Of a stretch of DNA of 52,578 nt, positions 1-50,311 are shown one piece after another. A model generated the notes under the pieces. It was given only the letters and a program-made list of their open reading frames with translations. It was not told the DNA's origin and did not search any database. Source of the DNA: a virus (taxonomy: Duplodnaviria > Caudoviricetes); IMG/VR virus record IMGVR_UViG_3300022918_000015, positions 1-52,578 of that record, one strand, 5' to 3'. The translations under genes and the position numbers were made by a program. Within the stretch, counting starts at the first letter, position 1; the number at the start of each line of letters is the position of its first letter.

Positions 1-810
1 CAACAACCAGTTTTAGTTGGTAAGGAAAATAATTTAAATACAAATAATTTTATTAAAACAATTAAAGTGCCTGGATTAAATCAAGACTTCACTATTAATG
101 AAGATAGTATATTTAACTTGTCTAAAATGTATGAGGATTTTGATTCAGCAACTGATAATCTAAACTCAGAAACTATTGATTTGTTTAAAAAAGAATTAGA
201 AGAAGGAAATTTAAGTGAAAATATAAAAATACAAGGAGATGAAACTTTAGTTAGTGAAGAAGACGAATTGAGTGAACAAGAAACTGCCGACGAAGAGGTA
301 AGAAAACTATTGAAATCAATTGGAGGATTAGACAATAAAAAAGCTAATAAGAAAACAACTAATGAAGAACCGCCTGAAATTAAACCTCCAGGAAATAGTC
401 TGGGAGGGTTATTAGCGGGAGATAGTTTTAATCCTGATTACATTCCTGATTATAATCCAAAGCAAAATAAAATACAAAATTTAATGATAGACAATACTGA
501 AGACGAAATGGATGATAGCTCTAGTAATAATTATGTAGAAACTTTATCACATACAGATGAAGACGAAATACTTGATAATAAAAGCATATTAGATTCCAGA
601 TTGAAAAGATATGTTGAAAAACTAGAGTCTGGAAAACTATCTAAGGAAAAAATAAAATCAAGTTTTGACGATTTTAATGCTAACACTTATGAGAAATTAA
701 TACAATTAATAAATATTCTTTATAGTGATAATTTAGATAATGCAAATAAATTTATTACATTTGCAAATAAAATTTACAATAAACCAGAAGATAATAATAA
801 AAACTGTTAA
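1..810 (+). CDS. 3' part of a large virion/ejection protein (5' end outside window)
   Basis: Frame 1 is open from base 1 to TAA at 808-810, so the GTG start at 67 is not the real start. Acidic linker-rich sequence; TAATG overlap with the RNAP gene; the ejection-protein call rests on position. Confidence 0.7.
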   Translation, partial: QQPVLVGKENNLNTNNFIKTIKVPGLNQDFTINEDSIFNLSKMYEDFDSATDNLNSETIDLFKKELEEGNLSENIKIQGDETLVSEEDELSEQETADEEVRKLLKSIGGLDNKKANKKTTNEEPPEIKPPGNSLGGLLAGDSFNPDYIPDYNPKQNKIQNLMIDNTEDEMDDSSSNNYVETLSHTDEDEILDNKSILDSRLKRYVEKLESGKLSKEKIKSSFDDFNANTYEKLIQLINILYSDNLDNANKFITFANKIYNKPEDNNKNC

Positions 811-3800: not shown

Positions 3801-6800
3801 GTTCCTAATAATCAAAAATATACTACTTTTAATAAAGAAATATTAATTGTAGATAAAAATAGATATGCCACAACAGCAGTTTTAAATGTTCTTGAAAATG
3901 ACATTAGTAAATTTGCTGAACAAATAAAAAAAGGAACTGGTAATAATACTTTAAATTATGGACATGAAATAGCAGATGCTCAAGGTTATATTACTCTTGA
4001 TTTCTATAAAAGAATTATATCTGGAACATACGGTTGGTCAAGCAAAGATAACGCTATATTTGAACGATTAAAAGATAAATCACATAAATATACCGATGAG
4101 GATATTAAATGGCTTAAATCGGCTGGTAGAAGCTTACAAGCCCTTAAATTAACTGGATTCAACCTCGAAGATATTCTAGACGAAAAAGATAATGTTATTG
4201 GTCAATTTCCAGTATATTTAAAATACTCAACAGCAGTATTAGCTCCAGCTATTATTGGAGGAACTGATTTAGAGAAATTAGTTAATCAAATGCAGATTCA
4301 AAATGTTGATCAGGTATTGTTTAAGTCAGGCTCTAAAGCATCTAACAAGCCAGCCACCACTATTTTCAATAAAGATGAAAATGGAATATTTACTGGCCTT
4401 AAAGATGATATGAATTTAAATCCATTTTTATTTAATTTATCAGGATTAAAACTACAAGTAGAATTACCAACTAAATTTGATCATGATGGAGTATTAGGTA
4501 ATCAGCATTTAAAAAACTTAATTGCTAATTTAGACTTAACTGATACAACTACTAAATATAAATGGAGAGATCAAGAATTTACAGCTAGTGAATTACAGAA
4601 TGAATATGATAACACCGTTAAAACAAATCTTCAATATCAATTAAATAATTTTATTGAAAAAATACAAATTAAAGATAAAACATTTGACCAAACTAAATTA
4701 AGAGAATTAATAGTAGATCAACTTGATGAAACAGCAGATGAAGATTTAATTGATATTTTACTAGATACAAGTTTACCACTTGAAACTATACCGGGTATAG
4801 CTCAAAGAGCTTTTCCCATTATATCTAGTTATATACATAAACACGTAGGAAAAGTTAGAACTAATGCTGGTTCTGCTATTCAAGTAGCTAATATAGGTTT
4901 TGACAGAATAGATAGTCCAGATGCCAATCAAATAGTATATCTTACAGAAGATAAAGAACTAAGACCTCCATTGTTAGTTACTAATACAGATGGTTCTAAG
5001 TCTATATCTAAAGCAAGAATCATGATGCCTTTTAGTTCTATTTACGAACAAACAGGTATGAGTTACGAAGATTTTAGAAAAGCATTTGCTTCAGGCAAAA
5101 TAGATAAAAGAATATTTGAAAACATTATAGGTTATCGTATTCCAAATCAAAGTATTTCATCTAATGACAGTATTGAAGTAGTTGGAATATTACCTCCAAG
5201 TATGGGAGATACGGCAATTGTGTATCATGAGATTACGGCTAAAACAGGTAGTGACTTTGATATCGATAAGATGTACTTGATGATGCCTAATTTCAAAATA
5301 GAAGAAAATGGTGAAATCAATTATATTGATGATGTTGAAACGCATAAAGGTCAACAGAATAAATTAATAGAATTGATGTCTAGTATTTTAACTAACACTA
5401 AAACATATGACGATTTAATCTCGCCGCTAGATAGCGATATACAAAAAGATGCGATTAATGAAGTCTTATACATTAAATCTATTTTAAATACAGAAGATTT
5501 TGAAGAGGAATTTAATAAATTTAAATCATTAAAAGGAAAATATAAAACTAAGTTTTTAAAATCATTCTCAGAAAAAAGAAAACTAGATCCTATTAGACAA
5601 TTATCACCAATGGGATTAGTTAAATCCAGAGTAGACATGTTGCAAGCTAAAAAACTAGTAGCAACTATGGCAAATCATATGACTGATATTCCTATGAGTC
5701 AAATAACAAATCAAGTATTTAAATATGATCTTAAAATAGATAGTTTTGAATTTAATAAAATGTTTACTTTAGGGCATGAAAATAACAATGAATACAAACT
5801 AACCAAAATAGTCAGTTACTTGATGAATGCTGCGGTGGATGCTGCGAAAGATAATTATATAATTGAGGGTAATTTCAATAGCTATACAGCTAACGGAGCT
5901 ATGCTAATGATTAGACTTGGTATAGAACCGGTAAATGTATTTAAAGTATTACTTAACGATGACGTATTAAAGCTTTCTAAAATGAAACAAATGCAGACTC
6001 AGAAAGTGGCTAGAATACAAGTAGATGATTACAAACAATCTTTACTTAATGAGTATTCAAGAGAATTAGTTAGTAATTTGCAAGAAAACAAAATAAACTT
6101 TAATGATTTCATACAAAAAAATGAAGATTTTAATTCTAAATTAGTATTAGGATTTTGGAATATAATTCAACTTGCAGGTAAAGAATTAAATAATGACATC
6201 GTCAGCTCTAAGAGTGATAGTAATGGAGCTGGTAAGAATATAGCTGAACATTCTACTCTGTATAATAGAATGGAAAGATTGTCTAAAGAATCAATTGGAA
6301 GTAATATAAATGAAAATTTTGTAAGAGGTAGAAAATTATTCAAATCAGGATTAGATTTAAATAATATAGAATTTAGACCTGAAATTACAGATGATATGAC
6401 ATTCTTAGGGGCTATGATGAATAATAGTTTATTCTTGACTAACTTTATAGCTAAAGAAATGTTTGTTGAAGCTACAGATAATTATAGATACATAGTAAAT
6501 AGAATATCAAACCAACTAGGTGAGCCTTTGCCAATTGCTGCTGACAATATAAAGTTAATAAGCAATCATGTCTATCCATATGTAATGTCTCAATCAGGAC
6601 ATGCATTATATAACATAGAAGAAGATCAAGTTGATTATATGACTAAAGAATTTTTATCTGAAGTAATAAGCAAAAAAGCTGCATTTCCAGATAACCTTAT
6701 GTTAAAGCAATTGTACGTAGATGCAAGTACTAATTTAATATCATTTCCAAATTATAAATATTTCGATACTAACTCTAAAATATTACTTAGAGAAGCAATG

Positions 6801-7637
6801 GAAGAGTTATATAATCAAAAAGATTTAAAAGGCAATCCAACGGGAGTAGAATTTATTCATAAACTAGTTCAATATGCCTTTTTAACTACTGGTTTTAAAC
6901 CAACTTATTTTAACATGAATGAGTTTTTACCGAAGAGTTATTTTTTAAATACTGGTCATGGTTATTTTATGAATAATTTGATAAACAGAATGAACGATGG
7001 ATATAGTGAGTTTATAGAAGATGAAAGTATTGAGAAAATGATGACATTCATGAGTATCAACAATGAGTCTAATTATAAAATAGTAGCTAATATAGAGAAA
7101 CCAGAGGGATTAATTTCAAACAAACCTATCACTAATCAGAAAATGGTTGGTAAGGTAACAATAACTGACACTAATAATTTCTATCCATTCTTTAAAAATA
7201 CTGTTTATAAAAATAATAAGATTAAAGAAAATTTATATATGCTAACTAATATATCTGATGAATTAAATGCAAAAAAAGAATTAATCAGGGTTCCTACTTA
7301 TTCTTTAATTAACTCTAATTCAGAAGAAGTGGATACAGAGAGAAACAATAAGTTAAGAAAGAAAACTAAAGTAAAGCTATTTGATTTAAATACAATAAGA
7401 CCAGAAAACTTATTTAGAGGAGAATCTCGAAATAAAAAGCTATATTTGCAATCTGAAATAGAATATACTTCAGAATTGGCTAATATATTTAAAGATAATA
7501 ACTGGACTGTATTAAATGACGATCTAGATTTACAAAAAGCAAAAAATATGCAAGAAGATAATTTCTACGGAAGAACTGAAGAAGAATGGAATGCTCTATC
7601 TAAAAAACAACAAGATAAAATAAAAGAATGTAACTAA
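810..7637 (+). CDS. Virion-packaged single-chain two-barrel RNA polymerase (crAss-like, phi14:2 gp66 type)
   Basis: 2275 aa; catalytic KTGSDFDIDK (DxDxD, nt 5253-5267) preceded by GYRIPNQ; also ADAQGY, LKYS, SGSK and AVDAAKD motifs typical of this family. Confidence 0.9.
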   Translation: MAQIHCKGSFPQGRLEIDKESILHSKLLELFPQQNKKNKEGGSILYDSLFSDSFKVFIGGDWTNKDPKSKDYKYFEANPGLLNTQDEPKLISMSGSHYFVNAKQERYFINQRTLSATDKIETINSLSLKYIQKTQNEKDSVELKAFVIKELEERYATMDSAYNQLESDLEDEIDDLEEDEILIRENQLRVLKKSMKSIKKDILDNKKSLDGIIKIIQNNLNDFNLKYIDEADVKEDDDEINTNSEIGNFTKEGSEVRDTNNIDAELKSILASIPDYIVDVDNTETPKTSKLLMLPMARPANEVKNRIVETLSNIIELELTESNYIQDPYDLMIAKLQETSNENDDSISRDFLAKIERIYNSKKTKLDKEAFKTKFVTSFYKAQNVFTISEINEKDGKLTLRHIDPASSQDKEAFIGNEFVRNIFNKFDYSSDNIKNSEDYKEARKLLVNFKTKNDIVKGLAKLDINLNYKTVNQLYNNRENVFYKIRLDKNLSLQDLFKSIFEQEIKFNDNEAADDKKVSSKGLKSIIEAYSKSDNGTQKNIVRALLDKDLFTPFNIIAKYEAINKTDLSDSSLFVGNKQRWMYSLVSGLNKEILNWKSGNLTSLKNKSHKNLIFVDYLLDLDNVKKGLYAENSNKNIAERNRRISNLKLIINSELKSTGDANPIQHKEIGEADLNMDIFFKMFNDRDEIYTTLEKSQNSQKQEALSSDMKVIFPYLFSADKSGSYSMKGFSSFENSVILDSNDELTSLGEGNQKVIKNYLLGEFEVLKRNSDLIQGYLNKTTAKQKQDYLMKYLIPDFHYATKFKNTNGNTLTYNVENDTITETDKDDNFISETKAKGLNSNFINSGSWNRWGFFNSIYEKNRSEFDLLYKFQEGVKLADPSQESHIEDVLFKLAEEEFMDVARENKSYFDSMIIVDKFGNKKSLFEVDTNIETSRLKTTPYNYAIASIFNNLEMFNLFNGDLAFYKQKGDKLSMEDALKRGPAILTDGLYIRQASVPNNQKYTTFNKEILIVDKNRYATTAVLNVLENDISKFAEQIKKGTGNNTLNYGHEIADAQGYITLDFYKRIISGTYGWSSKDNAIFERLKDKSHKYTDEDIKWLKSAGRSLQALKLTGFNLEDILDEKDNVIGQFPVYLKYSTAVLAPAIIGGTDLEKLVNQMQIQNVDQVLFKSGSKASNKPATTIFNKDENGIFTGLKDDMNLNPFLFNLSGLKLQVELPTKFDHDGVLGNQHLKNLIANLDLTDTTTKYKWRDQEFTASELQNEYDNTVKTNLQYQLNNFIEKIQIKDKTFDQTKLRELIVDQLDETADEDLIDILLDTSLPLETIPGIAQRAFPIISSYIHKHVGKVRTNAGSAIQVANIGFDRIDSPDANQIVYLTEDKELRPPLLVTNTDGSKSISKARIMMPFSSIYEQTGMSYEDFRKAFASGKIDKRIFENIIGYRIPNQSISSNDSIEVVGILPPSMGDTAIVYHEITAKTGSDFDIDKMYLMMPNFKIEENGEINYIDDVETHKGQQNKLIELMSSILTNTKTYDDLISPLDSDIQKDAINEVLYIKSILNTEDFEEEFNKFKSLKGKYKTKFLKSFSEKRKLDPIRQLSPMGLVKSRVDMLQAKKLVATMANHMTDIPMSQITNQVFKYDLKIDSFEFNKMFTLGHENNNEYKLTKIVSYLMNAAVDAAKDNYIIEGNFNSYTANGAMLMIRLGIEPVNVFKVLLNDDVLKLSKMKQMQTQKVARIQVDDYKQSLLNEYSRELVSNLQENKINFNDFIQKNEDFNSKLVLGFWNIIQLAGKELNNDIVSSKSDSNGAGKNIAEHSTLYNRMERLSKESIGSNINENFVRGRKLFKSGLDLNNIEFRPEITDDMTFLGAMMNNSLFLTNFIAKEMFVEATDNYRYIVNRISNQLGEPLPIAADNIKLISNHVYPYVMSQSGHALYNIEEDQVDYMTKEFLSEVISKKAAFPDNLMLKQLYVDASTNLISFPNYKYFDTNSKILLREAMEELYNQKDLKGNPTGVEFIHKLVQYAFLTTGFKPTYFNMNEFLPKSYFLNTGHGYFMNNLINRMNDGYSEFIEDESIEKMMTFMSINNESNYKIVANIEKPEGLISNKPITNQKMVGKVTITDTNNFYPFFKNTVYKNNKIKENLYMLTNISDELNAKKELIRVPTYSLINSNSEEVDTERNNKLRKKTKVKLFDLNTIRPENLFRGESRNKKLYLQSEIEYTSELANIFKDNNWTVLNDDLDLQKAKNMQEDNFYGRTEEEWNALSKKQQDKIKECN

Positions 7638-10600
7638 TGGCAGGAACATGTGTAAATAAATCAAGTGCTGAATTCATAGCATTAAAAGAACAAACAGGAA
7701 TAGATGAAGTTTTATTGGCAGCAAATGTTAGTATTTGGCAAGACGAAAACGGAATAGATAAATTTCCTACAGAAGAAGAGTTAAATAGTTTTTCTACAGA
7801 AGATGAAATATTATTCAATCAATATACTTCTACAGAAGATGCTATACAAAAATTCTATTCAACTAAAAGCGATAATAATACTTTATCTAGAAAACTTAAT
7901 TTAAATCTATCTGACAGAAGTGAAGATAGTATTAATATTACAGAACGCAAAATAGAAATATTAAAACAATCTTTAAATGCTGAGGTTTTAATAGATGCCA
8001 GTATTCCAGATTCAGGTCAGTTATTACCGGCTAATCATCCATTATCAAAAAGATATGGAAAACCTGTTATTGTAATAAATCCAAACAAGCTATTTTCAGA
8101 CACTGTAATTCACGAATTTGGACATTTGTATATTGACTTACTTAAAGAAGACGATGGTGTCTTAAATCAAGCGTATGGCTTGCTACGCAACACCGAATTC
8201 TACAGTAATATAGCAGCAGAATATCCAGAGTTAAGTTTAGTTGATTTAGATAAAGAGGTGTTAGCTACTGCAATAGGAATTGAGGGAGATAGAATATTTA
8301 ATAGAGATTTGCAGGATTTGTCTAATTGGCAAAAATTGAAAAACTGGATTTTAAATAAACTATCTTCTATATTCTCTGTTCAACCAAATGCTATTGAAAA
8401 ACTAGCAACTGAATTGCTTTCAAATCAAGTTAGAGTTTCCGGTGTTGAAAATTATAATACCATTATTACTCAAAGATCTAAATATAAAATAGATTCTGCT
8501 AGTTCTAATAAACAGCAAGATGTATTAGATTTATTTAAAAAATTAACTAAAGATTTTACAAAACAAACTGTTGATAATGAAAATATCTATATTGACAAAG
8601 AAGGAAATATTCACAATAATTCAGTAACCAAGAATATTAAACAATATCAAAGACGTTTTAACTCAAAAGATAAGGGTGATTATGAAATGGTATTTGACAG
8701 AACCTTATTTAATGTAGATAACATTGAATTTCAGTTAAATCAACCTAGAGTTCCAATGGCATTAACACGTGCGTTGAATGACTTTATGAATGAAAGAATA
8801 GTTTCTATTAGTTTTACTAAAGATGTTTCTGATAAAAACTGGTACGATGCTTATACAAGAGAAATTATAGAAGATGCAACTGGTGAAGTAGATGAAGTTC
8901 AACAAATGGAAGCTAATTTACTTTCTTCTCAAACAGGAGGAGCTATAACATTTAAAGCTAATATATTAAAACATTTAGATTTAATTTTAAATAGAGCTGA
9001 AGAATATCAGTTATCAGCTAATCAAAGACCTATTGTTGGACAGATAATTCACAATGCTTTAGAGAATTACATTAACGAAGAAACTCCATTTCCAAGCAAT
9101 ATATCAGATGAAGATAATGCATTATTAAATTCTATTAAAAATATAATAGATACAGGTATAGCTAATGGTAGTAGATTTGTTACTGAACAAATATTATATT
9201 CAGAAAATAAACAGATTCCAGGAACAGCAGATTTAATTGAAATAACAAAATCTGGTGAAGCTATTATTTATGATTTCAAAACAGTTAATAGTTTCTCAGG
9301 AAAAGATAAAGGAAATGAATATGAGAAAAAACCTCAATCACTTTATTTTGATAAAGGCTATATTCATCAACTACTTTCTTATGGAGCTATATTAAATCAA
9401 TACGATATTAATCTGGCAGATGATCCATATCATATTTTAATGGCTGAAGTTAAGTACTCTAACATAGAAGATTTAGATTCTACTATAACAATAGGTGAAG
9501 TTAGAAATACTTCAATGAGTTCTAAAGAATTATTACCTTTATTAAACTCAGCTAAAACAGCTATATTTAATGAATTTGCAACTAGTTCAGAACTAGAACA
9601 TATTAATATTAAGCCAGATATTCAGAATTTAAATGACTTATCTGAAAAAATTAATAGTGTTATTTCTATATATAAAAGACGAACTAGAAATATAGCAAGT
9701 AATCTTGACACGAGAGACATTGATCAAATACAAAAAGATTTAATTAAAAATCAAGATATAGAAGCAGATATTAATAAATACATTGCAAAAAATAACGAAG
9801 TAATTATTAACTCTTATGTAGATAACTTGTACAATTCATTATCTATTTTAGAACAACAAAAAGAATATATAGGAGAAGTTCCTACACCTGAATTTTTACA
9901 AAGCTTAAATTATGTATTACAATCTACTGAAGCTTTAGAAGATATAAAGAAAATACTTAGTGAAAATATTCCTTTTGAAGATAAAGATAAGTTATTAAAA
10001 ACCATAAATAAAACATTAAAAATAGTTGAAGAAAACAAAAAATACTATAAACAAAAACTACAACGTTTATCTATATCTCAACTTACTGAGAATAGTAATT
10101 TAATGCAAGGGTTATATGCTGAAAAATATCAAAGAGAAGCTAAAAAATTAGGAAAGAAAACTAAAGAAGAAATAACACTATATATAGAGCAAGAGTTAAA
10201 GAAAAATGAAACCATAATAAAAGTAAAAGAAATTCAATATTGGACCAAACAATATGAGGACGGATTTGCTGACTTAAGATTTCTTGAATACTTAATAGCG
10301 GATCCAGGTATGTCTAAATCTCAATTCGTTCAGTTAACTAAAAATATTTTAGATAAAGCAGATCAATCTACCAGAAATAAAATGATGGATGTTATTCCAG
10401 ATATAGCAAACTGGTACAATAATATTTCTTACGAAAAAACTGGAGATCCAAGAAAAGTGTGGGATAGGTTTCTAGAGAAAAATGCTAAAAACGACAATAA
10501 ACCAACAGGAGCGGTTATACCTGAATTTACAAGTAAATTTAGAGAAATGTTTCTTCAATATAGTTATCAATTAAAAGCACTATATAGAGAACTTAATAAA

Positions 10601-12874
10601 TTAAAAAATGCTCCTAAAACAGAATCTAATCAAAAATTAATTGAAGCTAAAAACGAACAAATTAAAGTATTAAAAAAAGAAAGACAGAAAACTATAAAAG
10701 AAAGAACCAGAGATGAAGATGATTTCAGAGATAGTTATATTCATCCTGATTTTGATAAATTAAACGATAAAGAAAAGGAAGATTTAAGATTTATACATAA
10801 AAATCTAACTGATGCAGATAATAGATTATATACAATACCTGAAAAGAAATTAACTCAAGAACTTGAAGACGGAACAATAATTTATAATCTTCCGAAAGAT
10901 AGAATGAGTGGTATTGAAGCAACTTATAAAGCAGGAGGAATTATTGGTACATTTAAGTCTAAGTTTGAAGACTTATTAAGACCGCCAGCAGATGAAGATA
11001 GTGAAAATATAACTAACCAAGAATATGGTTCAGAAAGTAAATTCGGAACTAATGAATTGGATGGATATGGGAATGAAGTATTTTCAGTTCCTGTTTACTA
11101 TAGAAATGATTTAGAAAATGATGAATTACAATCCTATGATATTCCTAGCTTACTAGCAATGAATCACGATACCACTATCACTTATGAAGAAAACAAACTA
11201 GTTGAAGCAGATTTATTTGTTATTGCAGAAAGTTTAAGTTCTAAAAACAATGACAAAATACTTAAAACAGATAGCTTTATTAACAGAAAAATACAAAACG
11301 CTGTTGGAAATAACTTTCAAAAATCTGATCAAAACTTAGTTTATCAAGCTGTAAAATCAAGTATAGATAACAGACTGTATAAACGTGCTTATAATGGAGT
11401 TTATTCAAAACAAAACTACCAGTTAATTAAAGGAGCTGAAGCAGTAAGTAAATATGCAAGTACTCTAGTTCTAGCTGGAAACTTTATGTCTGCTTTGTCT
11501 ACATTTACTCAAGGTAGTATTTATAGATTATTAGAGGCAAGTGTTGGAGAACATTTTACAATTACTGATTGGCAAAATGGAACTAAAAAAGCTTGGTTAG
11601 ATTTTCCAAACATGTTAAAAGATTCTCAAAAATATACTCCCGAAAGCAAAAGTGCATTATTGATTAAGAAATTTGGACTTGAAACACAATCACATGCTTT
11701 GACTAATAAATTTGTTCAGGATAATTTTGTAAAAAAACAATTAGACTCAGGTACTTTATTTTCAGTTACAAGTATGGCAGAAGCGGTTGTTACAAGTAAC
11801 TTGATGTACTCATTATTAAGCAACGTAAAGGTCACAAATGATAAAGGCGAATATATTAATCAAGAGGGAGAGAAAGTGTCTAAAAACGATGCTATGAGCC
11901 TTGACGAAGCATATACCGTAGTAGATGGTAAACTTGAATTAAATAAATTTGTAAAATACACAAGTTTTAATATTACAAGCAAATATAATGACGGTCAAAA
12001 TAAAGATAATACAATTGCAGCTACTGAGATATCAAGATACATAAGAAGCGTCTATGCTGATTTATATGGTCAATATAATCAAGATATGAAATCTGTTATG
12101 CAAAGAAATATTGCCGGTAAATTAATAATGAGTTTGAGGGGATGGTTGCCAAGAGGGGTTAACAGACGTTGGAGAGGTATTACGGATGCTATTGGTAAAG
12201 ATTTCATGAGTTTTGATGAATTAAGAGATGAAGCTAATATAGATAAAAGATTTTATTCTCAAGATCAAAAACAATTTCAAGAAGGACATTATACTACTAC
12301 TATTAGATTTATAAAGAGTTTAAGAAAACTAATGAAACAAAATCAAGAAGGATTATCTGCAAATAGAAAAACCTTAAGAGAATCTATGACAGATCATGAA
12401 ATAGCTAACTTAAAACGTACTCAGTACGAAATGGCTACGATGTTAATAATGATGGCTATGGCTATGTTGCTACGCACTATAGCAATGAGTTCTGAAGGAG
12501 ATGACAAGGATAAAGAAAAAATATATTTTGCAGCTTATTTAGCTTATAGAGTCCAAACAGAATTATCTACGTTTATATCACCTCCTGCTATGATGGAAAT
12601 GTTAACTAATCCAGCAGCAAGTATAAGTGTAGTGCAAAGAGTATTTGATTGGATGTGGCAATTAACTGGAGTAGCTTATTCTAAAGAAGAAGGTTGGGGA
12701 GTTAACATAAATGATGTTTATGATAAAGGAGATAAACAAGATGAAAGCAAAGCTTTACTTAAATCATATGGATTAGTTCCCTTTTATGTTAAAACAAACC
12801 AAATGAAAAGTATTCTAGGATTAGAAAGTAAAAATCCGATATCAGATTCATTTCAATACTCAATAAGTAAATAA
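7637..12874 (+). CDS. Large virion/ejection protein with zincin-like HExxH domain and PD-(D/E)xK nuclease domain
   Basis: 1745 aa; VIHEFGH (nt 8111-8125) with downstream KEVLA; IIHNALE...EQ...GTADLI...IYDFKT...QLLSY; hydrophobic helix near the C-terminus; TAATG coupling to the RNAP gene. Confidence 0.8.
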   Translation: MAGTCVNKSSAEFIALKEQTGIDEVLLAANVSIWQDENGIDKFPTEEELNSFSTEDEILFNQYTSTEDAIQKFYSTKSDNNTLSRKLNLNLSDRSEDSINITERKIEILKQSLNAEVLIDASIPDSGQLLPANHPLSKRYGKPVIVINPNKLFSDTVIHEFGHLYIDLLKEDDGVLNQAYGLLRNTEFYSNIAAEYPELSLVDLDKEVLATAIGIEGDRIFNRDLQDLSNWQKLKNWILNKLSSIFSVQPNAIEKLATELLSNQVRVSGVENYNTIITQRSKYKIDSASSNKQQDVLDLFKKLTKDFTKQTVDNENIYIDKEGNIHNNSVTKNIKQYQRRFNSKDKGDYEMVFDRTLFNVDNIEFQLNQPRVPMALTRALNDFMNERIVSISFTKDVSDKNWYDAYTREIIEDATGEVDEVQQMEANLLSSQTGGAITFKANILKHLDLILNRAEEYQLSANQRPIVGQIIHNALENYINEETPFPSNISDEDNALLNSIKNIIDTGIANGSRFVTEQILYSENKQIPGTADLIEITKSGEAIIYDFKTVNSFSGKDKGNEYEKKPQSLYFDKGYIHQLLSYGAILNQYDINLADDPYHILMAEVKYSNIEDLDSTITIGEVRNTSMSSKELLPLLNSAKTAIFNEFATSSELEHINIKPDIQNLNDLSEKINSVISIYKRRTRNIASNLDTRDIDQIQKDLIKNQDIEADINKYIAKNNEVIINSYVDNLYNSLSILEQQKEYIGEVPTPEFLQSLNYVLQSTEALEDIKKILSENIPFEDKDKLLKTINKTLKIVEENKKYYKQKLQRLSISQLTENSNLMQGLYAEKYQREAKKLGKKTKEEITLYIEQELKKNETIIKVKEIQYWTKQYEDGFADLRFLEYLIADPGMSKSQFVQLTKNILDKADQSTRNKMMDVIPDIANWYNNISYEKTGDPRKVWDRFLEKNAKNDNKPTGAVIPEFTSKFREMFLQYSYQLKALYRELNKLKNAPKTESNQKLIEAKNEQIKVLKKERQKTIKERTRDEDDFRDSYIHPDFDKLNDKEKEDLRFIHKNLTDADNRLYTIPEKKLTQELEDGTIIYNLPKDRMSGIEATYKAGGIIGTFKSKFEDLLRPPADEDSENITNQEYGSESKFGTNELDGYGNEVFSVPVYYRNDLENDELQSYDIPSLLAMNHDTTITYEENKLVEADLFVIAESLSSKNNDKILKTDSFINRKIQNAVGNNFQKSDQNLVYQAVKSSIDNRLYKRAYNGVYSKQNYQLIKGAEAVSKYASTLVLAGNFMSALSTFTQGSIYRLLEASVGEHFTITDWQNGTKKAWLDFPNMLKDSQKYTPESKSALLIKKFGLETQSHALTNKFVQDNFVKKQLDSGTLFSVTSMAEAVVTSNLMYSLLSNVKVTNDKGEYINQEGEKVSKNDAMSLDEAYTVVDGKLELNKFVKYTSFNITSKYNDGQNKDNTIAATEISRYIRSVYADLYGQYNQDMKSVMQRNIAGKLIMSLRGWLPRGVNRRWRGITDAIGKDFMSFDELRDEANIDKRFYSQDQKQFQEGHYTTTIRFIKSLRKLMKQNQEGLSANRKTLRESMTDHEIANLKRTQYEMATMLIMMAMAMLLRTIAMSSEGDDKDKEKIYFAAYLAYRVQTELSTFISPPAMMEMLTNPAASISVVQRVFDWMWQLTGVAYSKEEGWGVNINDVYDKGDKQDESKALLKSYGLVPFYVKTNQMKSILGLESKNPISDSFQYSISK

Positions 12875-41479: not shown

Positions 41480-42277
41480 TTATAAATTTCCTAAAAACAT
41501 ATTAATAATAGATTGATGACCATTTCCTAAACTTGTTAATGATTTAACATTGTTAGAAGCATCTTTATACATAATATCTGAATTTGCATAATCCATAGTT
41601 ATATCAGCTATTTCTAAATTAAATCCATCAAATTTATTTATCATTTCATTTAATTTAGGCAATTCTCCTAACTTTAAACTAGGTTGAGATATAATACCTG
41701 AGTCTATTTTGCGAAATAATAATTCCATGTAAATTATATCATATATTCTATACATATCACATAATTTTTTAAGCTCATCTTCAGTGAATTTACTCATATC
41801 ATTAGAAATACCTAAAGCCTTCTTAAACTTTAAGTAAGCAACAATATTTGTAAACAATCTGATATTAGTACTCATAAATTGAGGTTGACCAGTTGGCTGT
41901 AAATTAGAATTATAAGTACTAATACAGTCTATGATATCTCCTTTCAGCATCTTAATTAATAAAGTACTACCACATTCAAATTCAAAATGAATATCTCCTG
42001 TAATATCTTGATTGGTAAAAGTGTTATCTAATATAAACTTAGCCATTTTAATATCATCACGAACTGGTATTTTGTGAACATCTGATATAATAATATTATT
42101 TAATATTGTACTTAATGCCCAAGTTAGTTTTAATATCAAACTTTTTCCTGATCCGTTATGACCAACTAAAATTATGAGACTATTAAAATCCATATCCAGA
42201 TTTTTAAATTGCTCTAACATGCCTGGACCAGTGTTAGATATCTTCATGTGTTTTACATGTCCTAATGTTTTACTCAT
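41480..42277 (-). CDS. AAA_15/AAA_21-like ABC ATPase ending just after the signature motif
   Basis: ILVGHNGSGKS Walker A; C-terminal LTSLGNGHQS signature-like motif; stop 9 aa later; no Walker B. Confidence 0.7.
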   Translation of the reverse strand: MSKTLGHVKHMKISNTGPGMLEQFKNLDMDFNSLIILVGHNGSGKSLILKLTWALSTILNNIIISDVHKIPVRDDIKMAKFILDNTFTNQDITGDIHFEFECGSTLLIKMLKGDIIDCISTYNSNLQPTGQPQFMSTNIRLFTNIVAYLKFKKALGISNDMSKFTEDELKKLCDMYRIYDIIYMELLFRKIDSGIISQPSLKLGELPKLNEMINKFDGFNLEIADITMDYANSDIMYKDASNNVKSLTSLGNGHQSIINMFLGNL

Positions 42278-42290
42278 AATTATTTTATTA

Positions 42291-42354
42291 AAAGTGTTGA
42301 TCTGACCTTTAACCAGATAGTACCACGGCTTAGAGCTGTCGGTAGCAACACTTT
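42291..42354. ncRNA. Three-way-junction structured element, copy 1
   Basis: P1 AAAGTGTTG/CAACACTTT, P2 ATCTG/CAGAT, P3 TACC-ACGGC/GCTGT-C-GGTA; second copy at 44739. Confidence 0.65.
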
Positions 42355-42359
42355 ATTAT

Positions 42360-43172
42360 TTAACTTCTTAATATATCTTCTCTAATTTTCTTAGACAATT
42401 CTAAATGCTTTTCACCAAAATGCTCCCAAGCTAATCCCATAGCTTTTAAATCATAATGAGATATTATAGTGCTAACTTGATCTTCGGGATTTTCATGTCC
42501 TAAAATATAAATACTATCAGCTAAATTAACAGCTAAGTTAATATCATGAGTTGAAAATATAACTGTATTTAAATCATTAGTTTGAGAAATATGTTCAAAG
42601 CTTTCTTTAAGTTTCTCTATATTACCTACATCTAAACCTGAAGCTGGTTCATCAAAAACAATATACTTCTTTGAAGTAAATAATTGTTCTAGAATAGCAG
42701 TTCTTTGACGTTGACCTCCAGATAGCTCATTTGGATATTGATCCTTTTGAGACAGCAATTTCCATTCATTTAAAGCATCTACAATCATAGTATGTTTTTC
42801 TGCATTAGATAATTTTTGTTTTCTTAATGCAAACTTTAAACATTCATAAACAGTCTTATGTCTAAATAAAGTATAAGCTTGATCAACAAATCCAGCATCC
42901 CCTTCTGATATTATTTTACAGCTATTAGCATTATAATCATCAGATACTAATATTTGACCAGAAATTGGCTTAATTAATCCAGCTAAAGCTTTAAATAATG
43001 TACTTTTACCTCTACCTGATCTACCTAATATTGCAATACATTGACCAGTTATTTTATCTGTTCTGGTAATATTCTTTTCCTCAAGACTAATATCTTTCAG
43101 AATAATTTTATTACCATATCCAATATTTACCTTATCAAGATATAATATTGTATTTTCTAATTTATATTCCAT
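42360..43172 (-). CDS. ABC transporter ATP-binding subunit (TauB/SsuB/NitT-like)
   Basis: GRSGRGKST, LSGGQRQR, VFDEP, STHD. Confidence 0.92.
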   Translation of the reverse strand: MEYKLENTILYLDKVNIGYGNKIILKDISLEEKNITRTDKITGQCIAILGRSGRGKSTLFKALAGLIKPISGQILVSDDYNANSCKIISEGDAGFVDQAYTLFRHKTVYECLKFALRKQKLSNAEKHTMIVDALNEWKLLSQKDQYPNELSGGQRQRTAILEQLFTSKKYIVFDEPASGLDVGNIEKLKESFEHISQTNDLNTVIFSTHDINLAVNLADSIYILGHENPEDQVSTIISHYDLKAMGLAWEHFGEKHLELSKKIREDILRS

Positions 43173-43174
43173 AA

Positions 43175-43384
43175 TTAATTAAAATAAGTATATAAATTTC
43201 TACCAAATATTAGCCAAATAATTCCATCAATTAAAAAGAAACCAGTTAGATAATAAAGTACTACAACAAAATACAAAAAACTATAAATTAAAATCATAGT
43301 TATAAAACTTAAACAAAATATTATTCTTTCCTTAAAATTACTTGGCCTACTATCCCAGTAATTACAAAACTCATTTACTGACAT
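43175..43384 (-). CDS. Small membrane protein
   Basis: Hydrophobic 69-aa ORF between permease and ATPase. Confidence 0.6.
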   Translation of the reverse strand: MSVNEFCNYWDSRPSNFKERIIFCLSFITMILIYSFLYFVVVLYYLTGFFLIDGIIWLIFGRNLYTYFN

Positions 43385-43386
43385 AA

Positions 43387-44166
43387 TTAAAAATTTGAAT
43401 ATCTAAAAAACAACCTTCTTAAACTTATTAAACTATAATCTATAGATTTTCCAATCATTAATATTATAATTTGCAAAGCTATTACTTCACCTTGAGAACC
43501 ATTCTTTTGATTGGTACCAATTAAATAACCTAATCCACCACTAGCAGTATTAATTAATTCTATTACTACAAGCATATTAAATATAATAGCAAGGTTTTGT
43601 CTTACAGCTTCAATAACAAAATCAAAACGACCCTTTATCATTACTTCAAGTATTATCTCCCAACGAGAACACCCTATACTTTTAGCATGATTAATTTCAT
43701 TTTCAATCGATTTCTTTGACAGACTCTGCAATAAACTTGTTATTAAAAATAAACTCATAAATATTACTAATACTGTTACCTGTATATTTCTTGCATTATG
43801 AATTATAATACTAATATATAAACTAATACCAACTAATGGCAAAAATCTAAACGTACTAATTAAATCACAAAATGGCTTAATAACAGGTAGAGGACTTAGG
43901 TATACTACTATACAAGAGATTATAACGCTATATAAACTAGCTTGTAAAAATAATAAGATCGAACTGGAAATATGGGTCATTAACCCTAAATTCCAGGCAC
44001 TAACAAAACCATTAAATACTTGCGTAATTGTTGGAAATAAATGTGTAGTGCCTACAAAACTAGAAATTACCCACCATCCCAGAATAAAAGTTAACCACAA
44101 GAGTATAACTAAATTATTCTGAGATTTGGATAACTCCTCAAAAGGTCTAAATAATTTATTTAGCAT
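43387..44166 (-). CDS. ABC transporter permease (TauC/SsuC-like)
   Basis: About 6 TM segments; FLPLVG; EAA-like loop INHAKSIGCSRWEII; GGLGY. Confidence 0.88.
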   Translation of the reverse strand: MLNKLFRPFEELSKSQNNLVILLWLTFILGWWVISSFVGTTHLFPTITQVFNGFVSAWNLGLMTHISSSILLFLQASLYSVIISCIVVYLSPLPVIKPFCDLISTFRFLPLVGISLYISIIIHNARNIQVTVLVIFMSLFLITSLLQSLSKKSIENEINHAKSIGCSRWEIILEVMIKGRFDFVIEAVRQNLAIIFNMLVVIELINTASGGLGYLIGTNQKNGSQGEVIALQIIILMIGKSIDYSLISLRRLFFRYSNF

Positions 44167-44181
44167 TTTTGAGATAACTAA

Positions 44182-44679
44182 TTAAAAACTATAACTAATA
44201 CTAGGAGACAAGTAATTAACTTCATCCCAGTTACTAAAACTAAGACCTATACTCACGTTTTCATGCGTATAACCAATTCCAACTCCAACTTCTGTAAAAT
44301 AATCATCAGATCCAAAATATCCGCCTGCACCTGCAATTAGGCTACCAGTTAAATTTCCCACTAATTTATAATTTGGTGAAATTTTAGCTTCCCAGAAATA
44401 ATTAGTAATCTGATCTTTGTCAAAAACATCAACTAGATTACTTCTTCCAAATACAGCTCCATAAGAGATGTTATTGCAAGTAACACCACCTTCTACTGTG
44501 GCATATGAATTTTCTTGCCAATCTCCTTGAAGATGCATAGATAATCCAAGACTCACATAATGAGTAAGTGTATTTACAGATTTAGTTTCTACAACATCCA
44601 CTTGAGGTTGTTCAATTGTTTGAGCATTCATGCTCATTGCTCCTAAGAACAACATTCCTACGATTAAGAATTTTTTCAT
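44182..44679 (-). CDS. Small outer-membrane beta-barrel-like protein
   Basis: Sec signal peptide (MKKFLIVGMLFLGAMSMNA-Q), alternating amphipathic strands, C-terminal ISYSF. Confidence 0.7.
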   Translation of the reverse strand: MKKFLIVGMLFLGAMSMNAQTIEQPQVDVVETKSVNTLTHYVSLGLSMHLQGDWQENSYATVEGGVTCNNISYGAVFGRSNLVDVFDKDQITNYFWEAKISPNYKLVGNLTGSLIAGAGGYFGSDDYFTEVGVGIGYTHENVSIGLSFSNWDEVNYLSPSISYSF

Positions 44680-44738
44680 TTTTTTTGTTTTGTGTTTTAA
44701 GTGCTATGCACTATTAATATTAAATTTAATTAAAAAAA

Positions 44739-44803
44739 ATAAGATATTGATCTGACTTGTTTAAACAGATAGTACGACTTGCAAGAACGTAGCAATAGCT
44801 TAT
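44739..44803. ncRNA. Three-way-junction structured element, copy 2
   Basis: P1 ATAAG-A-TATTG/CAATA-G-CTTAT, P2 ATCTG/CAGAT, P3 TACG/CGTA; same core as the 42291 copy. Confidence 0.65.
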
Positions 44804-44853
44804 AAAAGTAAAATGGAAGAGATCGAGAGTTTCCAGTATGCTATTTTACTTTT
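44804..44853. ncRNA. Stem-bracketed element adjoining copy 2
   Basis: 11-bp AAAAGTAAAAT/ATTTTACTTTT around a 28-nt core. Confidence 0.4.
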
Positions 44854-44887
44854 TTATTTTAAAAGAGTTAATTGACTTTATCGCTCT

Positions 44888-45163
44888 TTATAATTTATAA
44901 TGTAATTTATTATTGATAAAATAATTATAATTATCTAATAGAAATCTTTTTCTACATTTAACAGTAGTAGCTTTATAATTTCCAAGATACCAATTACCAT
45001 TTTTATCTAGAATAGCTTTGCTTACATGGTTAAAACATAAATTATTATTAAATATATAAAAATCTTTTTCATTAAAATAAGAAGATTCTCTAAATTTAAA
45101 ATTATGTTCTTTATGATGTAAATAATATAATACTAATCCTGTTATAATAATAAATATATACAT
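44888..45163 (-). CDS. Small protein with N-terminal TM
   Basis: 91 aa; TAATG coupling to the OmpA-fusion gene. Confidence 0.55.
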   Translation of the reverse strand: MYIFIIITGLVLYYLHHKEHNFKFRESSYFNEKDFYIFNNNLCFNHVSKAILDKNGNWYLGNYKATTVKCRKRFLLDNYNYFINNKLHYKL

Positions 45164-47001
45164 TATTTTAAAAGAGTTACTTGAACCCTTCTGTTTTTAT
45201 ACCTACCTTCAGCTGTATTATTATTGCCAATAGGTTTTTTATCTCCCAATCCTTCTACAGATTCAACTGCTTGGAATGGTAAACCTTGATTTTGCAAATA
45301 CTCTAGTACAGCGTTAGCTCTAGATTTAGATAAAATTTGATTTTGATCAGGATTACCGGTATTATCAGTATGGCCTTCAATAATGATTTTAGTTCCCTCA
45401 GCTTGAACAATTAAATTGTATAATTCTTTAAGTTGTTTATCGCTTGAATGCAATATCTCCGAACTACCTGAATTAAAATTGATTTGCCAGCTTCCAGATG
45501 CCATTACAGACGTTAACTTTTTAGAATAGTCTACTTGTTTCACTTCACCTGAATTAATACCTGAAATCGCTTGTAATGACGTCAAATCAACTGCTTTATC
45601 ATAAGGAGTAACTTTTTTAACAGCATCACTGAATCCATTTGGATTAAGATCTGTCAAATAATTAGCAACTTGTTCATAAACAGATTTGTATCTATTAATT
45701 CCATCATCACCTAATCCATAATATTGCAAAGCATCTGCATGATTCATAATTCTAGTACCACCAGCAATTTGACCATTACTTAAAGTTTTACCTTTAAACA
45801 TTTCATACCAATATTGAGGAGATTGATAACCGTAAGTTTTAGCAACACATTGTGAAGCTTTAACTCTCCAATCATCATATAACTTCATTTGATTAGCAGC
45901 AGTATAAGTAGCTTTCAAAATATTAACAACCACGTCTGGGTTAGCATCAGACCATTCTTTTAAGACTATTAAAGTTGTAGTCATTTGATTAGGAAAATCT
46001 TTAGTAGAAGATATAGTTACTGCGTGAGGAACTTTATCAAATATCATTTTATCTCCAGGCAACCAAGTACTACATAAATCAATTTTTCTAGATACAGTCT
46101 TACCTGTTGGCTTACCATCTTTAAGTTCTTTCATGTCATAAACCTTTCCATTTAATTGAGATGCAATATAATCATTTGCACATTCAATAATATTTGGATT
46201 ATGAATAAAGTTTACAGCTTCTGGATCATACGTACCGATGTTTGGATTTACTTTAATACCTTTATTAGCAAATATATAATTCAATGCTACAACCCAGTCA
46301 CCGTCTCCTACAGCAGTTACGATAACAGCTCCTTTAAGATTAGCCGGATTATCAATATATTTTTTATCTCCAATAAGTTTATCTTCTCCATAACTAGCTC
46401 CATAACAAGCCTTAACTACAGCGTGATATTTATCTTCACCAAATTTATCGTCAAGCATTTTATTTAATGTTGATATAAAATAAGGAGCGCCATCACCCAT
46501 AATACTTACTCCGAATGCACTAGTATTGCTTTGTGGATTTAAATTCCCTGAATCAAATTCAGCAGTAAAATTAACCATAGCAGCTTGTAATAGACTAAAA
46601 TCATCCTGACGTCCTATATTAAGATTTACACCATATTTTTCCATTAAACTATTTTCAGAAGTTTGAGGACCGCCATTAGCTACAATCATAGTACTATTAC
46701 CATTCCAAGTATACTCAAGTAAATTATACTTAGTTTTACTTTTTACTTTAGTTGATAAACTGTTTCCTGGCAAATCGATTTTATCTGCTTTAGAAGCGTT
46801 ATCAATTACGGTTCCATCAATTTCCAAATCATTACCTGTAGTAGATTTTAGAAAGTTCATTCCGGGGGCAAAAAAGGCTACTGCTAAATAAGCTATAACG
46901 ATAATAGCTATTACACCCAATACTTTAAGTGTATTACGACCTTTGGGAGTTAGGTTATCCCACCAACTTGTTTTTGTTTGATTTTGATTAAAATTTTCCA
47001 T
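45163..47001 (-). CDS. Membrane-anchored substrate-binding-like protein fused to an OmpA-like peptidoglycan-binding domain
   Basis: N-terminal TM; central region resembling TauA/NMT1-type binding proteins; C-terminal INFNSGS...IEGHTDNTG...NQILSKSRA...NRRVQV. Confidence 0.85.
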   Translation of the reverse strand: MENFNQNQTKTSWWDNLTPKGRNTLKVLGVIAIIVIAYLAVAFFAPGMNFLKSTTGNDLEIDGTVIDNASKADKIDLPGNSLSTKVKSKTKYNLLEYTWNGNSTMIVANGGPQTSENSLMEKYGVNLNIGRQDDFSLLQAAMVNFTAEFDSGNLNPQSNTSAFGVSIMGDGAPYFISTLNKMLDDKFGEDKYHAVVKACYGASYGEDKLIGDKKYIDNPANLKGAVIVTAVGDGDWVVALNYIFANKGIKVNPNIGTYDPEAVNFIHNPNIIECANDYIASQLNGKVYDMKELKDGKPTGKTVSRKIDLCSTWLPGDKMIFDKVPHAVTISSTKDFPNQMTTTLIVLKEWSDANPDVVVNILKATYTAANQMKLYDDWRVKASQCVAKTYGYQSPQYWYEMFKGKTLSNGQIAGGTRIMNHADALQYYGLGDDGINRYKSVYEQVANYLTDLNPNGFSDAVKKVTPYDKAVDLTSLQAISGINSGEVKQVDYSKKLTSVMASGSWQINFNSGSSEILHSSDKQLKELYNLIVQAEGTKIIIEGHTDNTGNPDQNQILSKSRANAVLEYLQNQGLPFQAVESVEGLGDKKPIGNNNTAEGRYKNRRVQVTLLK

Positions 47002-49857: not shown

Positions 49858-49880
49858 TTTAACTCTAATTTTAGTTATAG

Positions 49881-49963
49881 CTCCCAGGGAGGGATTCGAA
49901 CCCACACACAAGTGATTGTACTACCTTCACAGATAGCTTGTCTACCAATTTCAACACCCGGGA
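49881..49963 (-). tRNA. Atypical class II tRNA (Leu-like body, 6-nt anticodon loop UGUGAA)
   Basis: Acceptor TCCCGGG/CCTGGGA, D arm TTG-AAATTGGTAGA-CAA, anticodon stem CTATC/GGTAG, variable arm TACAA/TTGTG, T loop TTCGAAT. Confidence 0.75.
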
Positions 49964-49976
49964 ATTTTAATTTATT

Positions 49977-50042
49977 TCGTAGAACGCAAAACATACTAAC
50001 TGATCAGGTTTTCAATTTTGCGTTTTTATTACAAAACTACGA
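49977..50042 (-). ncRNA. Candidate three-way-junction RNA between tRNAs
   Basis: TCGTAG/CTACGA enclosing AACGCAAAA/TTTTGCGTT and a short third stem. Confidence 0.4.
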
Positions 50043-50140
50043 CACTTTTTTATTTTGGACACTACTGGTCGAAAAGTATAAACGACCTCACGCATAGTAT
50101 AACTCTACAAGAATCACCAAGCTTTATTATCTAACTGTCG

Positions 50141-50218
50141 TGGACTTAGAGAGACTCGAACTCTCATGTAACCAAATTACGCTTTCTATTGGTTATGAGC
50201 CAAAGGCGATATAAGTCC
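50141..50218 (-). tRNA. D-armless tRNA-like RNA with CAU anticodon (Met or Ile2)
   Basis: Acceptor GGACTTA/TAAGTCC + A; TTGG-CTCATAA-CCAA; T arm GAGAG-TTCGAGT-CTCTC; only 8 nt between acceptor and anticodon stem. Confidence 0.75.
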
Positions 50219-50227
50219 GATAATTAG

Positions 50228-50311
50228 TACCGAGAACCAGATTTGAACTGGCACGAGCTATTAAGCTCACGGAATTTTAAGTCCCGCATGTCTGCATTCC
50301 ATCACCTCGGC
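50228..50311 (-). tRNA. trnL: tRNA-Leu(UAA)
   Basis: GCCGAGG/TCTCGGT + A; CGGGA-CTTAAAA-TTCCG; long variable arm GAGCT/AGCTC; GCCAG-TTCAAAT-CTGGT. Confidence 0.9.

Follow-up and report, generated by a model that had tools for sequence, protein, structure and literature searches.

A three-way-junction element carried by diverse phages is a probable new family of small structured RNA

Results

Two copies of the element in the window

The subject of this study is a short three-way-junction element found twice in IMGVR_UViG_3300022918_000015, an IMG/VR record of a Caudoviricetes virus (Duplodnaviria). Positions 1 to 52,578 of the record were analysed, and this whole stretch of 52,578 bases is referred to as the window. 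It has a G+C content of 27% and contains DNA ligase, primase and helicase genes. In the element an outer closing helix (P1) holds a hairpin (P2) and an arm of variable sequence (P3). A preliminary description of the stretch had placed copies at 42291-42354 and 44739-44803, and both are present there; their core, TTGATCTGAC..CAGATAGTAC, has 2 exact matches in the window compared with 0.00 expected from 100 shuffles. The genes near both copies are all on the minus strand (the gene strand hereafter), to which the element is also assigned. The parts of the two copies and the genes around them, with lengths in nucleotides (nt), base pairs (bp) or amino acids (aa) and scores for the covariance models R1 and R2, are as follows.

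42291..42354, minus strand: copy 1 of the three-way-junction element; R1 60.6 bits; R2 47.9 bits on the minus strand
42291-42299 with 42346-42354, minus strand: P1 of copy 1, 9 of 9 pairs formed; P1 covaries across the family
42300..42318 (42300-42304 with 42314-42318), minus strand: P2 hairpin of copy 1, 5-bp ATCTG/CAGAT stem and 9-nt loop, family-conserved in sequence; family variants of P2 retain pairing, with U.G on the minus strand
42321..42344, minus strand: P3 of copy 1, the variable arm on a TAC..GTA base; longest palindrome 4 nt (AGCT)
44739..44803, minus strand: copy 2 of the three-way-junction element; R1 66.7 bits; R2 50.7 bits on the minus strand
44741-44749 with 44793-44801, minus strand: 9-bp core of P1 of copy 2, 8 of 9 pairs with one A.G mismatch; two more pairs possible, extending to 44739/44803
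44750..44770 (44750-44754 with 44766-44770), minus strand: P2 hairpin of copy 2, ATCTG/CAGAT stem and 11-nt loop
44773..44791, minus strand: P3 of copy 2, 4-bp stem; the 11-nt loop contains the 8-nt palindrome CTTGCAAG (44778-44785)
41480..42277, minus strand: gene downstream of copy 1, 265 aa, with weak matches to P-loop and ATP-binding cassette (ABC)-like ATPases; its start codon is 13 nt past P1
42360..44679, minus strand: four genes between the copies; their products are a protein of 165 aa whose N-terminus looks like a signal peptide, a permease of 259 aa (PF00528), a protein of 69 aa and an ABC ATPase of 270 aa (PF00005)

Both copies have the same P2 stem (ATCTG/CAGAT) and the same P3 base (TAC/GTA), whereas P1 differs in sequence and still pairs, and the fourth pair of P3 shows a compensatory change, C-G in one copy and G-C in the other. 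These features, like the distances to the start codons, bear out the preliminary description. Copy 1 lies 14 nt past the stop codon of the ABC ATPase gene and 13 nt ahead of the next start codon (42277), while copy 2 sits inside a 208-nt gap, 59-61 nt from the minus-strand start codon at 44679. Outside the two copies the next best matches in the window score only 14.7 bits with R1 and 11.7 bits with R2; a possible third copy at 7898-7966, a weak R1 match, was rejected as it falls within an open reading frame (ORF) of 1745 aa and has no R2 match. Folding of the single sequences is weak evidence (z = -4.0 on the plus strand and -1.97 on the minus strand for copy 1; -0.33 and -0.08 for copy 2), and support for the fold derives from covariation across relatives.

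A family of related elements

Exact-pattern scans (ATCTGAC..CAGATAGTAC..GTAGC) returned 22 viral and 26 metagenome stretches. The matches retained carry P1 sequences that are different yet perfectly complementary, such as ATAAACAG/CTGTTTAT, ATAACTAGTG/CACTAGTTAT and ACCTG/CAGGT; because the patterns fixed only the innermost base of P1, the search itself did not impose this pairing. Several near-identical contigs (L076 type), together with L013 and L041, have the pattern inside coding sequence with no P1 and were set aside as chance, as were almost all of the matches listed from an earlier, broad pattern scan. Bacterial and archaeal genomes, scanned with the exact ATCTG-type pattern only and not with the other variants, gave 5 matches, all lacking P1 and judged to be chance.

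Model R1 was built from ten sequences, in whose alignment both sides have changed in 8 of the 9 P1 pairs. It was then used, free of the exact-pattern constraint on P2, to search 79 loci encoding relatives of a 168-aa HNH endonuclease seen beside three members. The element was found in 23 of these loci (16 distinct sequences), always downstream of the HNH gene and in one relative orientation; it is present in 23 of the 36 full-length loci with an HNH identity of at least 71%, and in none of the 42 loci with distant HNH relatives. A looser pattern scan (at least 118 stretches) followed by R1 gave 62 matches, which were curated further. Six low-scoring matches with poor P1 helices (L324, L322, L308, L309, L341 and L313) were left out as chance, and L185 (altered P2) and L286 (no junction G) as aberrant. 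The curated family comprises 51 distinct members from viral and metagenome contigs among the matches listed, and at least 66 IMG/VR contigs, 4 kb to 434 kb long, carry one and the same sequence variant. The preliminary description had proposed building a covariance model and looking for further homologs; the relatives above came from pattern scans and model searches.

L185 (3554-3627) and L180 carry a variant with a changed P2 5' strand and a longer P2 loop, in which GGUCAG, the P3 base and P1 are kept. The R1 score of L185 is low, and L180 was missed by R1.

Fold and covariation

RNAalifold, applied to 25 diverse members on the gene strand, returned the same three-way junction unaided, with 11 of 18 pairs compensatory. 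In this alignment 95.6% of cells are paired, compared with 72.9% in shuffled alignments and 27-42% in slid controls, and the covariation score of 0.649 (0.198 when shuffled) was reached by none of 500 shuffles.

On the gene strand the order of parts is 5' P1a, C, UAC[P3]GUA, CU, RUCUG[loop ending in GU]CAGRY, P1b 3', and the whole spans 45-80 nt with a G+C content of 24-62% across members. P1 is a helix of 6-11 bp that varies freely in sequence and abuts P2 without a linker in all members. P2 is a 5-bp hairpin of near-fixed sequence, RUCUG..GU-CAGRY, whose loop of 6-17 nt ends in GU. P3, a variable arm of 13-39 nt on the UAC..GUA base, is joined by single-stranded C and CU, giving joining strands of 0, 1 (C) and 2 (CU) nt. 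The P2 stems, written as plus-strand DNA, are distributed over the 51 rows as follows.

ATCTG/CAGAT: 13 of 51
ACCTG/CAGAT: 6 of 51
GCCTG/CAGAC: 22 of 51
GTCTG/CAGAC: 9 of 51
ATCTG/CAGAC: 1 of 51

The first P2 pair thus swaps between A-U and G-C. The invariance initially attributed to the P2 loop holds in part: AC, which is the GU at the 3' end of the loop on the gene strand, is invariant across the family, and TTTAA is not conserved. By eye, the P2 loop displays no consistent complementarity to P1 or to the P3 loop. P3 of the T4-like group is a covarying helix in two parts, with an invariant internal loop between them. This 2x2 loop (AA opposite AC on the gene strand), with covarying helices on either side, is a candidate contact site.

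The folded strand

In the intergenic loci examined the element is always co-oriented with its flanking genes, and 31 of the 32 loci with tRNAs contain only same-strand tRNAs. The wobble pairs point to the same strand. At depths 1-7 of 41 distinct P1 stems there are 259 Watson-Crick pairs, 15 pairs that are G-U on the gene strand, 4 that are G-U on the other strand and 9 other combinations. The second pair of P2 is U.G on the gene strand in 28 of the 51 rows, and would be a mid-helix C.A mismatch on the opposite strand. The initial hint that the plus strand folds, taken from one G-U pair, is reversed by the family-wide counts and by the shared orientation of element, genes and tRNAs. It is most likely the gene (minus) strand that folds, and it is quite probable that the element is a genuine structured RNA encoded there.

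Genomic context

A tRNA on the same strand begins 3-6 nt past P1 in 19 of the 51 members (Cys 13, Pro 3, Val 1, His 1, Asn 1), and a further 13 have a tRNA within 3 kb that is not adjacent. No member has a tRNA end within 12 nt upstream of the element. The spacer between element and tRNA is mostly 4 nt long and A/U-rich, with a final U ahead of the tRNA G+1; ribonuclease P (RNase P) prefers U at -1. In one locus (L272) the element sits between two tRNAs.

Members of the HNH-linked T4-like group have a sigma-70-like site, TGGATA-16-TATATT, whose end is about 15 nt upstream of the element. Where close relatives lack the element, this promoter-like site stands immediately ahead of tRNA-Cys; the element is thus an optional insert between promoter and tRNA. 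In another group the element begins 3-5 nt after TATAAT/TATAAATA-like words. The slot between promoter and tRNA-Cys seems to accept various small structured RNAs. In L195, about 80 nt before tRNA-Cys (3624-3696), it holds a different insert with a 10-bp closing helix, probably the tRNA-Trp listed by ARAGORN just before tRNA-Cys. In L199 TGGATA-16-TATATT occurs twice, at 3518-3545 before the element and at 3731-3758 after tRNA-Cys, and looks like a repeated promoter module. In five contigs (L254, L281, L291, L292 and L310), some of them from records of 234-236 kb, the next tRNA (Pro, anticodon agg) starts exactly 169 nt after the element, a spacer that might hold another RNA.

Among five complete T4-like genomes of 162-173 kb, four have one copy of the element and one has none; other records also have one copy apiece, with unrelated neighbours. 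The element is a dispensable single-copy feature rather than a recurrent signal. Its carriers include the A+T-rich phage of the window, G+C-rich contigs in which recombination genes were read from the translated ORFs and, most prominently, large phages rich in tRNAs that have a T4-type topoisomerase II gene (phrog_543). An all-against-all BLASTP comparison of the flanking ORFs revealed no constant neighbour protein, only the HNH endonuclease in three related loci and a small protein that L153 and L155 have in common. HNH gene and element are separated by anything from 17 to about 1100 nt, and the element is missing from several HNH loci; in L119 and L167 a GIY-YIG gene is nearby.

The two window copies do flank the genes for the predicted barrel protein, permease and ATPase, as had been pointed out, and this arrangement looks incidental since single copies elsewhere have unrelated neighbours and no copy of the element is present in LR756500.1, the sole phage record to carry a similar ATPase gene. 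At most, the two copies may mark transcript boundaries around the ABC-transporter genes.

A palindrome in the P3 loop

In long P3 arms the apical loop starts with a perfect 6-nt palindrome, at the same site in 17 of 18 distinct versions. Six hexamers occur at this site (CGAUCG, AGCGCU, ACCGGU, CACGUG, CGCGCG/GCGCGC and GGCGCC), and the mirrored positions covary and are 100% paired, two of the three pairs having changed on both sides (CG 8, GC 4 and AU 2 at one; GC 7, AU 5 and CG 2 at the next). Copy 2 of the window has CUUGCAAG in its 11-nt P3 loop, a palindrome length reached by 2.3% of shuffles. The argument rests on recurrence at one site with different sequences. As adjacent self-complementary bases cannot pair inside one hairpin loop, pairing between the loops of two molecules is the most economical explanation, and the palindromes suggest loop-loop dimers. 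The hallmark of a kissing loop, self-complementarity kept through compensatory changes, is seen in the long P3 arms, and not in the short arms or in copy 1; dimers are a prediction from this pattern.

Comparison with known RNAs and DNA elements

Searching the whole window with Rfam release 15 (4227 models) gave only three tRNA matches at the gathering threshold. With the expectation value (E) relaxed to 10, the region 42100-45000 gave four weak matches, none overlapping a copy, and in six loci with diverse members nothing matched the elements at E up to 5, ribozyme families and RF00005 included. A blastn search of 50,697 GenBank phage records found no copy, a single marginal 26-nt match (E 0.6) being judged chance. 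A search of the main text of published articles, core sequence words included, found no description of the motif. The proposal that this is a new structured RNA class has therefore gained support, from a three-way junction recurring in unrelated phage contigs, from P1, P2 and P3 that covary, and from the lack of an Rfam 15 match. By these sequence comparisons we rate the element as new, probably an RNA class within the known niche of phage tRNA-island RNAs.

Several known structures were considered and rejected. The hammerhead core consists of CUGANGA, GAA(A) and a UH cleavage site; the element shares the three-way junction with hammerhead ribozymes, but its joining strands are 0, 1 and 2 nt and no hammerhead model scores. 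Integron attC sites have conserved outer boxes, RYYYAAC .. GTTRRRY, and a variable centre, while the element is the reverse of this, its outer helix being variable and its centre conserved, and there is no integrase among the neighbouring genes. A sigma-70 promoter made by the conserved halves is inconsistent with the varying spacing between them. At the elements ARAGORN calls no tRNA and RF00005 gives no match at E up to 5. There is nonetheless some likeness to tRNA: the element is of similar size, in T4-like members the 7-bp closing helix runs without a linker into a 5-bp hairpin, as an acceptor stem does into a T arm, and RNase P, on cutting at the next tRNA, would leave the element with a 3' tail of 4 nt. 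The element differs in having three arms rather than four, with no T-loop, anticodon-type 7-nt loop or CCA. The comparison with a tRNA-like minihelix, in which a 7-bp helix stacks on a 5-bp hairpin capped by a T-loop and has a single-stranded 3' tail, gives a mixed picture: the 5-bp P2 abuts a P1 of 7 bp in many T4-like members and 6-11 bp elsewhere, and the P2 loop of 6-17 nt is no 7-nt T-loop.

Among RNAs of tRNA islands, the fold like that of hepatitis delta virus (HDV) is a nested double pseudoknot. Theta ribozymes are HDV-like, occur in uncultured gut phages and have a cleavage site within 5 nt of a tRNA 3' end (PMC10879173). They are likewise small, structured and tRNA-adjacent, but they lie 3' of the tRNA and cleave at its 3' end, whereas our element is 5' and a plain three-way junction. 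Its adjacency is to tRNA 5' ends, with no tRNA end within 12 nt upstream in any of the 51 members, and a theta ribozyme was rejected. The species 1 and 2 RNAs of phage T4 are expected to be excised by the tRNA-processing machinery. These RNAs, rnaC and rnaD, lie in the tRNA cluster on the tRNA strand, abutting tRNA-Arg, with the homing endonuclease gene segB in the cluster (NC_000866 annotation). They differ from the element in length (139 and 119 nt), in position (3' of tRNA-Arg, whereas the element is 5' of a tRNA) and, for rnaC, in having a tRNA-type T arm that the element lacks; R1 run with filters off on T4 68000-76000 gave a best match of 8.0 bits (E 1.9), not at rnaC or rnaD.

Phages and prophages also encode ROOL and GOLLD, RNAs often found near tRNA islands which form homo-oligomers through kissing loops with covarying intermolecular pairs (PMC12286853). 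Behaviour of this kind thus exists in the tRNA-island niche. ROOL and GOLLD are some 10x larger (many GOLLD exceed 800 nt) and contain many stems and pseudoknots, and oligomerisation of the element is suggested by palindromes alone; their Rfam families gave no match at the elements or elsewhere in the stretches searched. The phi29 pRNA is a three-way junction in which a helix formed by the ends closes two hairpin arms with intermolecular loop pairing. It is about 120-170 nt, is limited to phi29-like phages and uses two different loops that pair hand in hand into rings, compared with the one self-pairing palindromic loop proposed for the element, which has no Rfam match. The kissing hairpin at the dimerisation initiation site of human immunodeficiency virus type 1 has a 9-nt loop made up of two 5' nt, a 6-nt G+C-rich palindrome and one 3' A. 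The 27-nt P3 arms have a 9-nt loop of this layout, a likeness of one loop to a layout known from an unrelated system. The put RNA of phage HK022 comprises two promoter-proximal hairpins acting in cis on RNA polymerase, and resembles the element, by description only, in position and copy number.

Discussion

On balance we favour the view that the element is a small structured phage RNA of a new family, transcribed, released by RNase P where a tRNA follows, probably able to dimerise and probably acting in trans. Each copy would encode a structured RNA of 45-80 nt on the gene (minus) strand, made within the phage's own transcripts. In large T4-like phages it has a sigma-70-like promoter close upstream and a tRNA 3-6 nt downstream, such that an RNase P cut at the tRNA would release a tRNA-sized RNA with a short 3' tail. 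Most members with a long P3 would expose a self-complementary hexamer in the loop, through which two molecules would probably pair loop to loop. The product would be an accessory RNA, probably acting in trans on a conserved partner, and in kind closer to the T4 species 1 and 2 RNAs and to ROOL and GOLLD than to an ABC-transporter-specific switch. The near-identical core across A+T-rich, G+C-rich and large T4-like phages suggests that the binding partner is likely to be universal.

Several observations weigh against this view. Folding energies favour the opposite strand in 17 of 25 members (mean difference 0.28 kcal/mol) and in both window copies. The invariant P3 internal loop has A.C and A.A on the gene strand, and G.U and U.U on the other, and G-U pairs do not discriminate RNA from single-stranded DNA. 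The thermodynamic choice of strand is uninformative, and we consider the free energies to be outweighed by the wobble counts of P1 and P2 together with orientation. The search patterns fixed much of P2 and the P3 base, so invariance there is partly imposed. No tRNA lies within 3 kb of 19 of the 51 members, both window copies included, so RNase P release cannot apply to the whole family. The five shortest P3 arms and copy 1 have no palindrome or one of just 4 nt (AGCU in copy 1), and one by one the palindromes are not significant against shuffles (p = 0.02-0.8).

The roles of the phage tRNA-island RNAs (T4 species 1 and 2, ROOL and GOLLD) have been unknown for decades, and the element adds one that is much smaller and easily synthesised. 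Direct tests are cheap, given a covariation-backed fold, an assigned strand (which thermodynamics does not confirm), a fixed place by the RNase P site of the tRNA and predicted dimers. For annotation, the model gives a label to intergenic sequence that would be left blank in at least 66 IMG/VR contigs, counting one sequence variant alone. A more specific and rather unlikely version of the proposal is that an RNase P-excised kissing homodimer, through its stack resembling acceptor stem and T arm, acts as a decoy or inhibitor of a host tRNA-handling factor such as a tRNA-directed defence nuclease or a processing enzyme. If so, the element would be an RNA-only counter-defence or host-takeover module traded among unrelated phages.

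The strongest competitor, which we hold to be unlikely, is a cis-acting leader or punctuation element, placed between cistrons or close to the 5' end of a transcription unit, that directs processing, shields downstream RNA from 5'-end-dependent decay or brings about antitermination in the manner of HK022 put. Such a role would fit an element that is always intergenic and co-oriented with genes, about 15 nt after TGGATA-16-TATATT in the HNH-linked T4-like group and 3-5 nt after TATAAT/TATAAATA-like words elsewhere, and whose window copies share one transcription direction, precede start codons by 13 and about 60 nt and occupy the only gaps of any size in a tight gene array. Promoter-like words are, however, common in A+T-rich DNA (32 found and 23 expected in the window region), and one copy per 165-kb genome, with none in one complete relative, is unfit for a general processing or stability signal. 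Nor does the conserved loop palindrome have an obvious cis role, and the conservation of P2 across phages of differing G+C (24-62% in the elements) points to a specific partner rather than to structure alone. An elaborate intrinsic terminator, in which P1 and a U-run close the preceding operon, is the least credible of the alternatives and very improbable. Copy 2 has P1 followed by AUUUUUUUU on the gene strand, and in several members outside tRNA arrays U-rich tracts follow, but a terminator scan calls neither window copy, and many U-runs pair with upstream A-runs in an extended P1. Transcription must also read through the A-rich tail into the tRNA 3-6 nt past P1 in 19 of 51 members; one copy per 165-kb genome is far too few, and terminators do not need the conserved junction sequence.

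The possibility that the element acts as DNA, already raised in the preliminary description as a recombination or protein-binding site, is not favoured and we consider it improbable. It would be a folded single strand or cruciform serving recombination, priming or a structure-specific protein, and may spread with homing endonuclease genes. Single-stranded DNA tolerates G-T pairs too, the gene strand serves as template for lagging-strand synthesis wherever genes and replication fork run the same way, the element is just downstream in 23 of 36 loci with close HNH relatives and none of 42 with distant ones, a GIY-YIG gene is near in L119 and L167, and the window copies flank a gene block of differing base composition. 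Against these points, the 19 of 51 members that abut a tRNA 5' end do so at a fixed 3-6 nt from +1 with U at -1, a feature of RNA precursors, and the conserved halves are 13-39 nt apart, a spacing too variable for a duplex-binding protein. The distance to the HNH gene ranges from 17 to about 1100 nt and several HNH loci have no element; in the window no recombinase or transposase lies beside it, and the GC skew shows no change that would indicate a replication origin near 42-45 kb. Slightly more improbable still, the element could be a small ribozyme of a new self-cleaving class, scattered in phages beside tRNAs in the manner of hammerhead, twister, pistol, hatchet and theta. A size of 45-80 nt, invariant nucleotides in the junction core, outer helices that vary freely, and occurrence across unrelated phages with no constant neighbour gene would all suit a ribozyme, and the fixed short distance to tRNA 5' ends recalls theta ribozymes at tRNA 3' ends (PMC10879173). 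Only about five unpaired nucleotides are conserved (C, CU and GU), however, and conservation is mostly in helices, a pattern that differs from known small ribozymes; the ribozyme families of Rfam give no score at the elements even with E relaxed to 5-10, and a 3-6 nt spacer would be left on the tRNA, so that RNase P would still be needed.

Other features of the window

The AT skew of the block 42360-44679 is near 0, compared with about -0.12 across the rest of the minus-strand array, and because of this departure the four-gene ABC-transporter block may be a separately acquired cassette, as the skew suggests. Its ATPase gene shares 70.6% DNA identity with part of LR756500.1, a 462-kb uncultured phage. 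Just upstream of copy 2, at 45163-47001 on the minus strand, lies a gene for a 612-aa protein with a C-terminal OmpA domain (PF00691, E 4e-21), an unusual phage cargo. A small tRNA cluster occupies 49880-50311 on the minus strand, where Rfam detects three tRNAs (50228-50311, 50141-50218 and 49881-49963) and ARAGORN two. According to ARAGORN the tRNA at 49880-49963 has a four-base anticodon (gtga), while the tRNA at 50141-50218 has only 4 nt at the 15 Rfam model positions of the D arm and may be without one. At the other end of the window, 810-12874 on the plus strand contains two giant ORFs, 2275 and 1745 aa long, for which PHROG gave no match at E up to 1e-5, and right after these, at about 13 kb, come a strand switch and a change in the sign of the GC skew.

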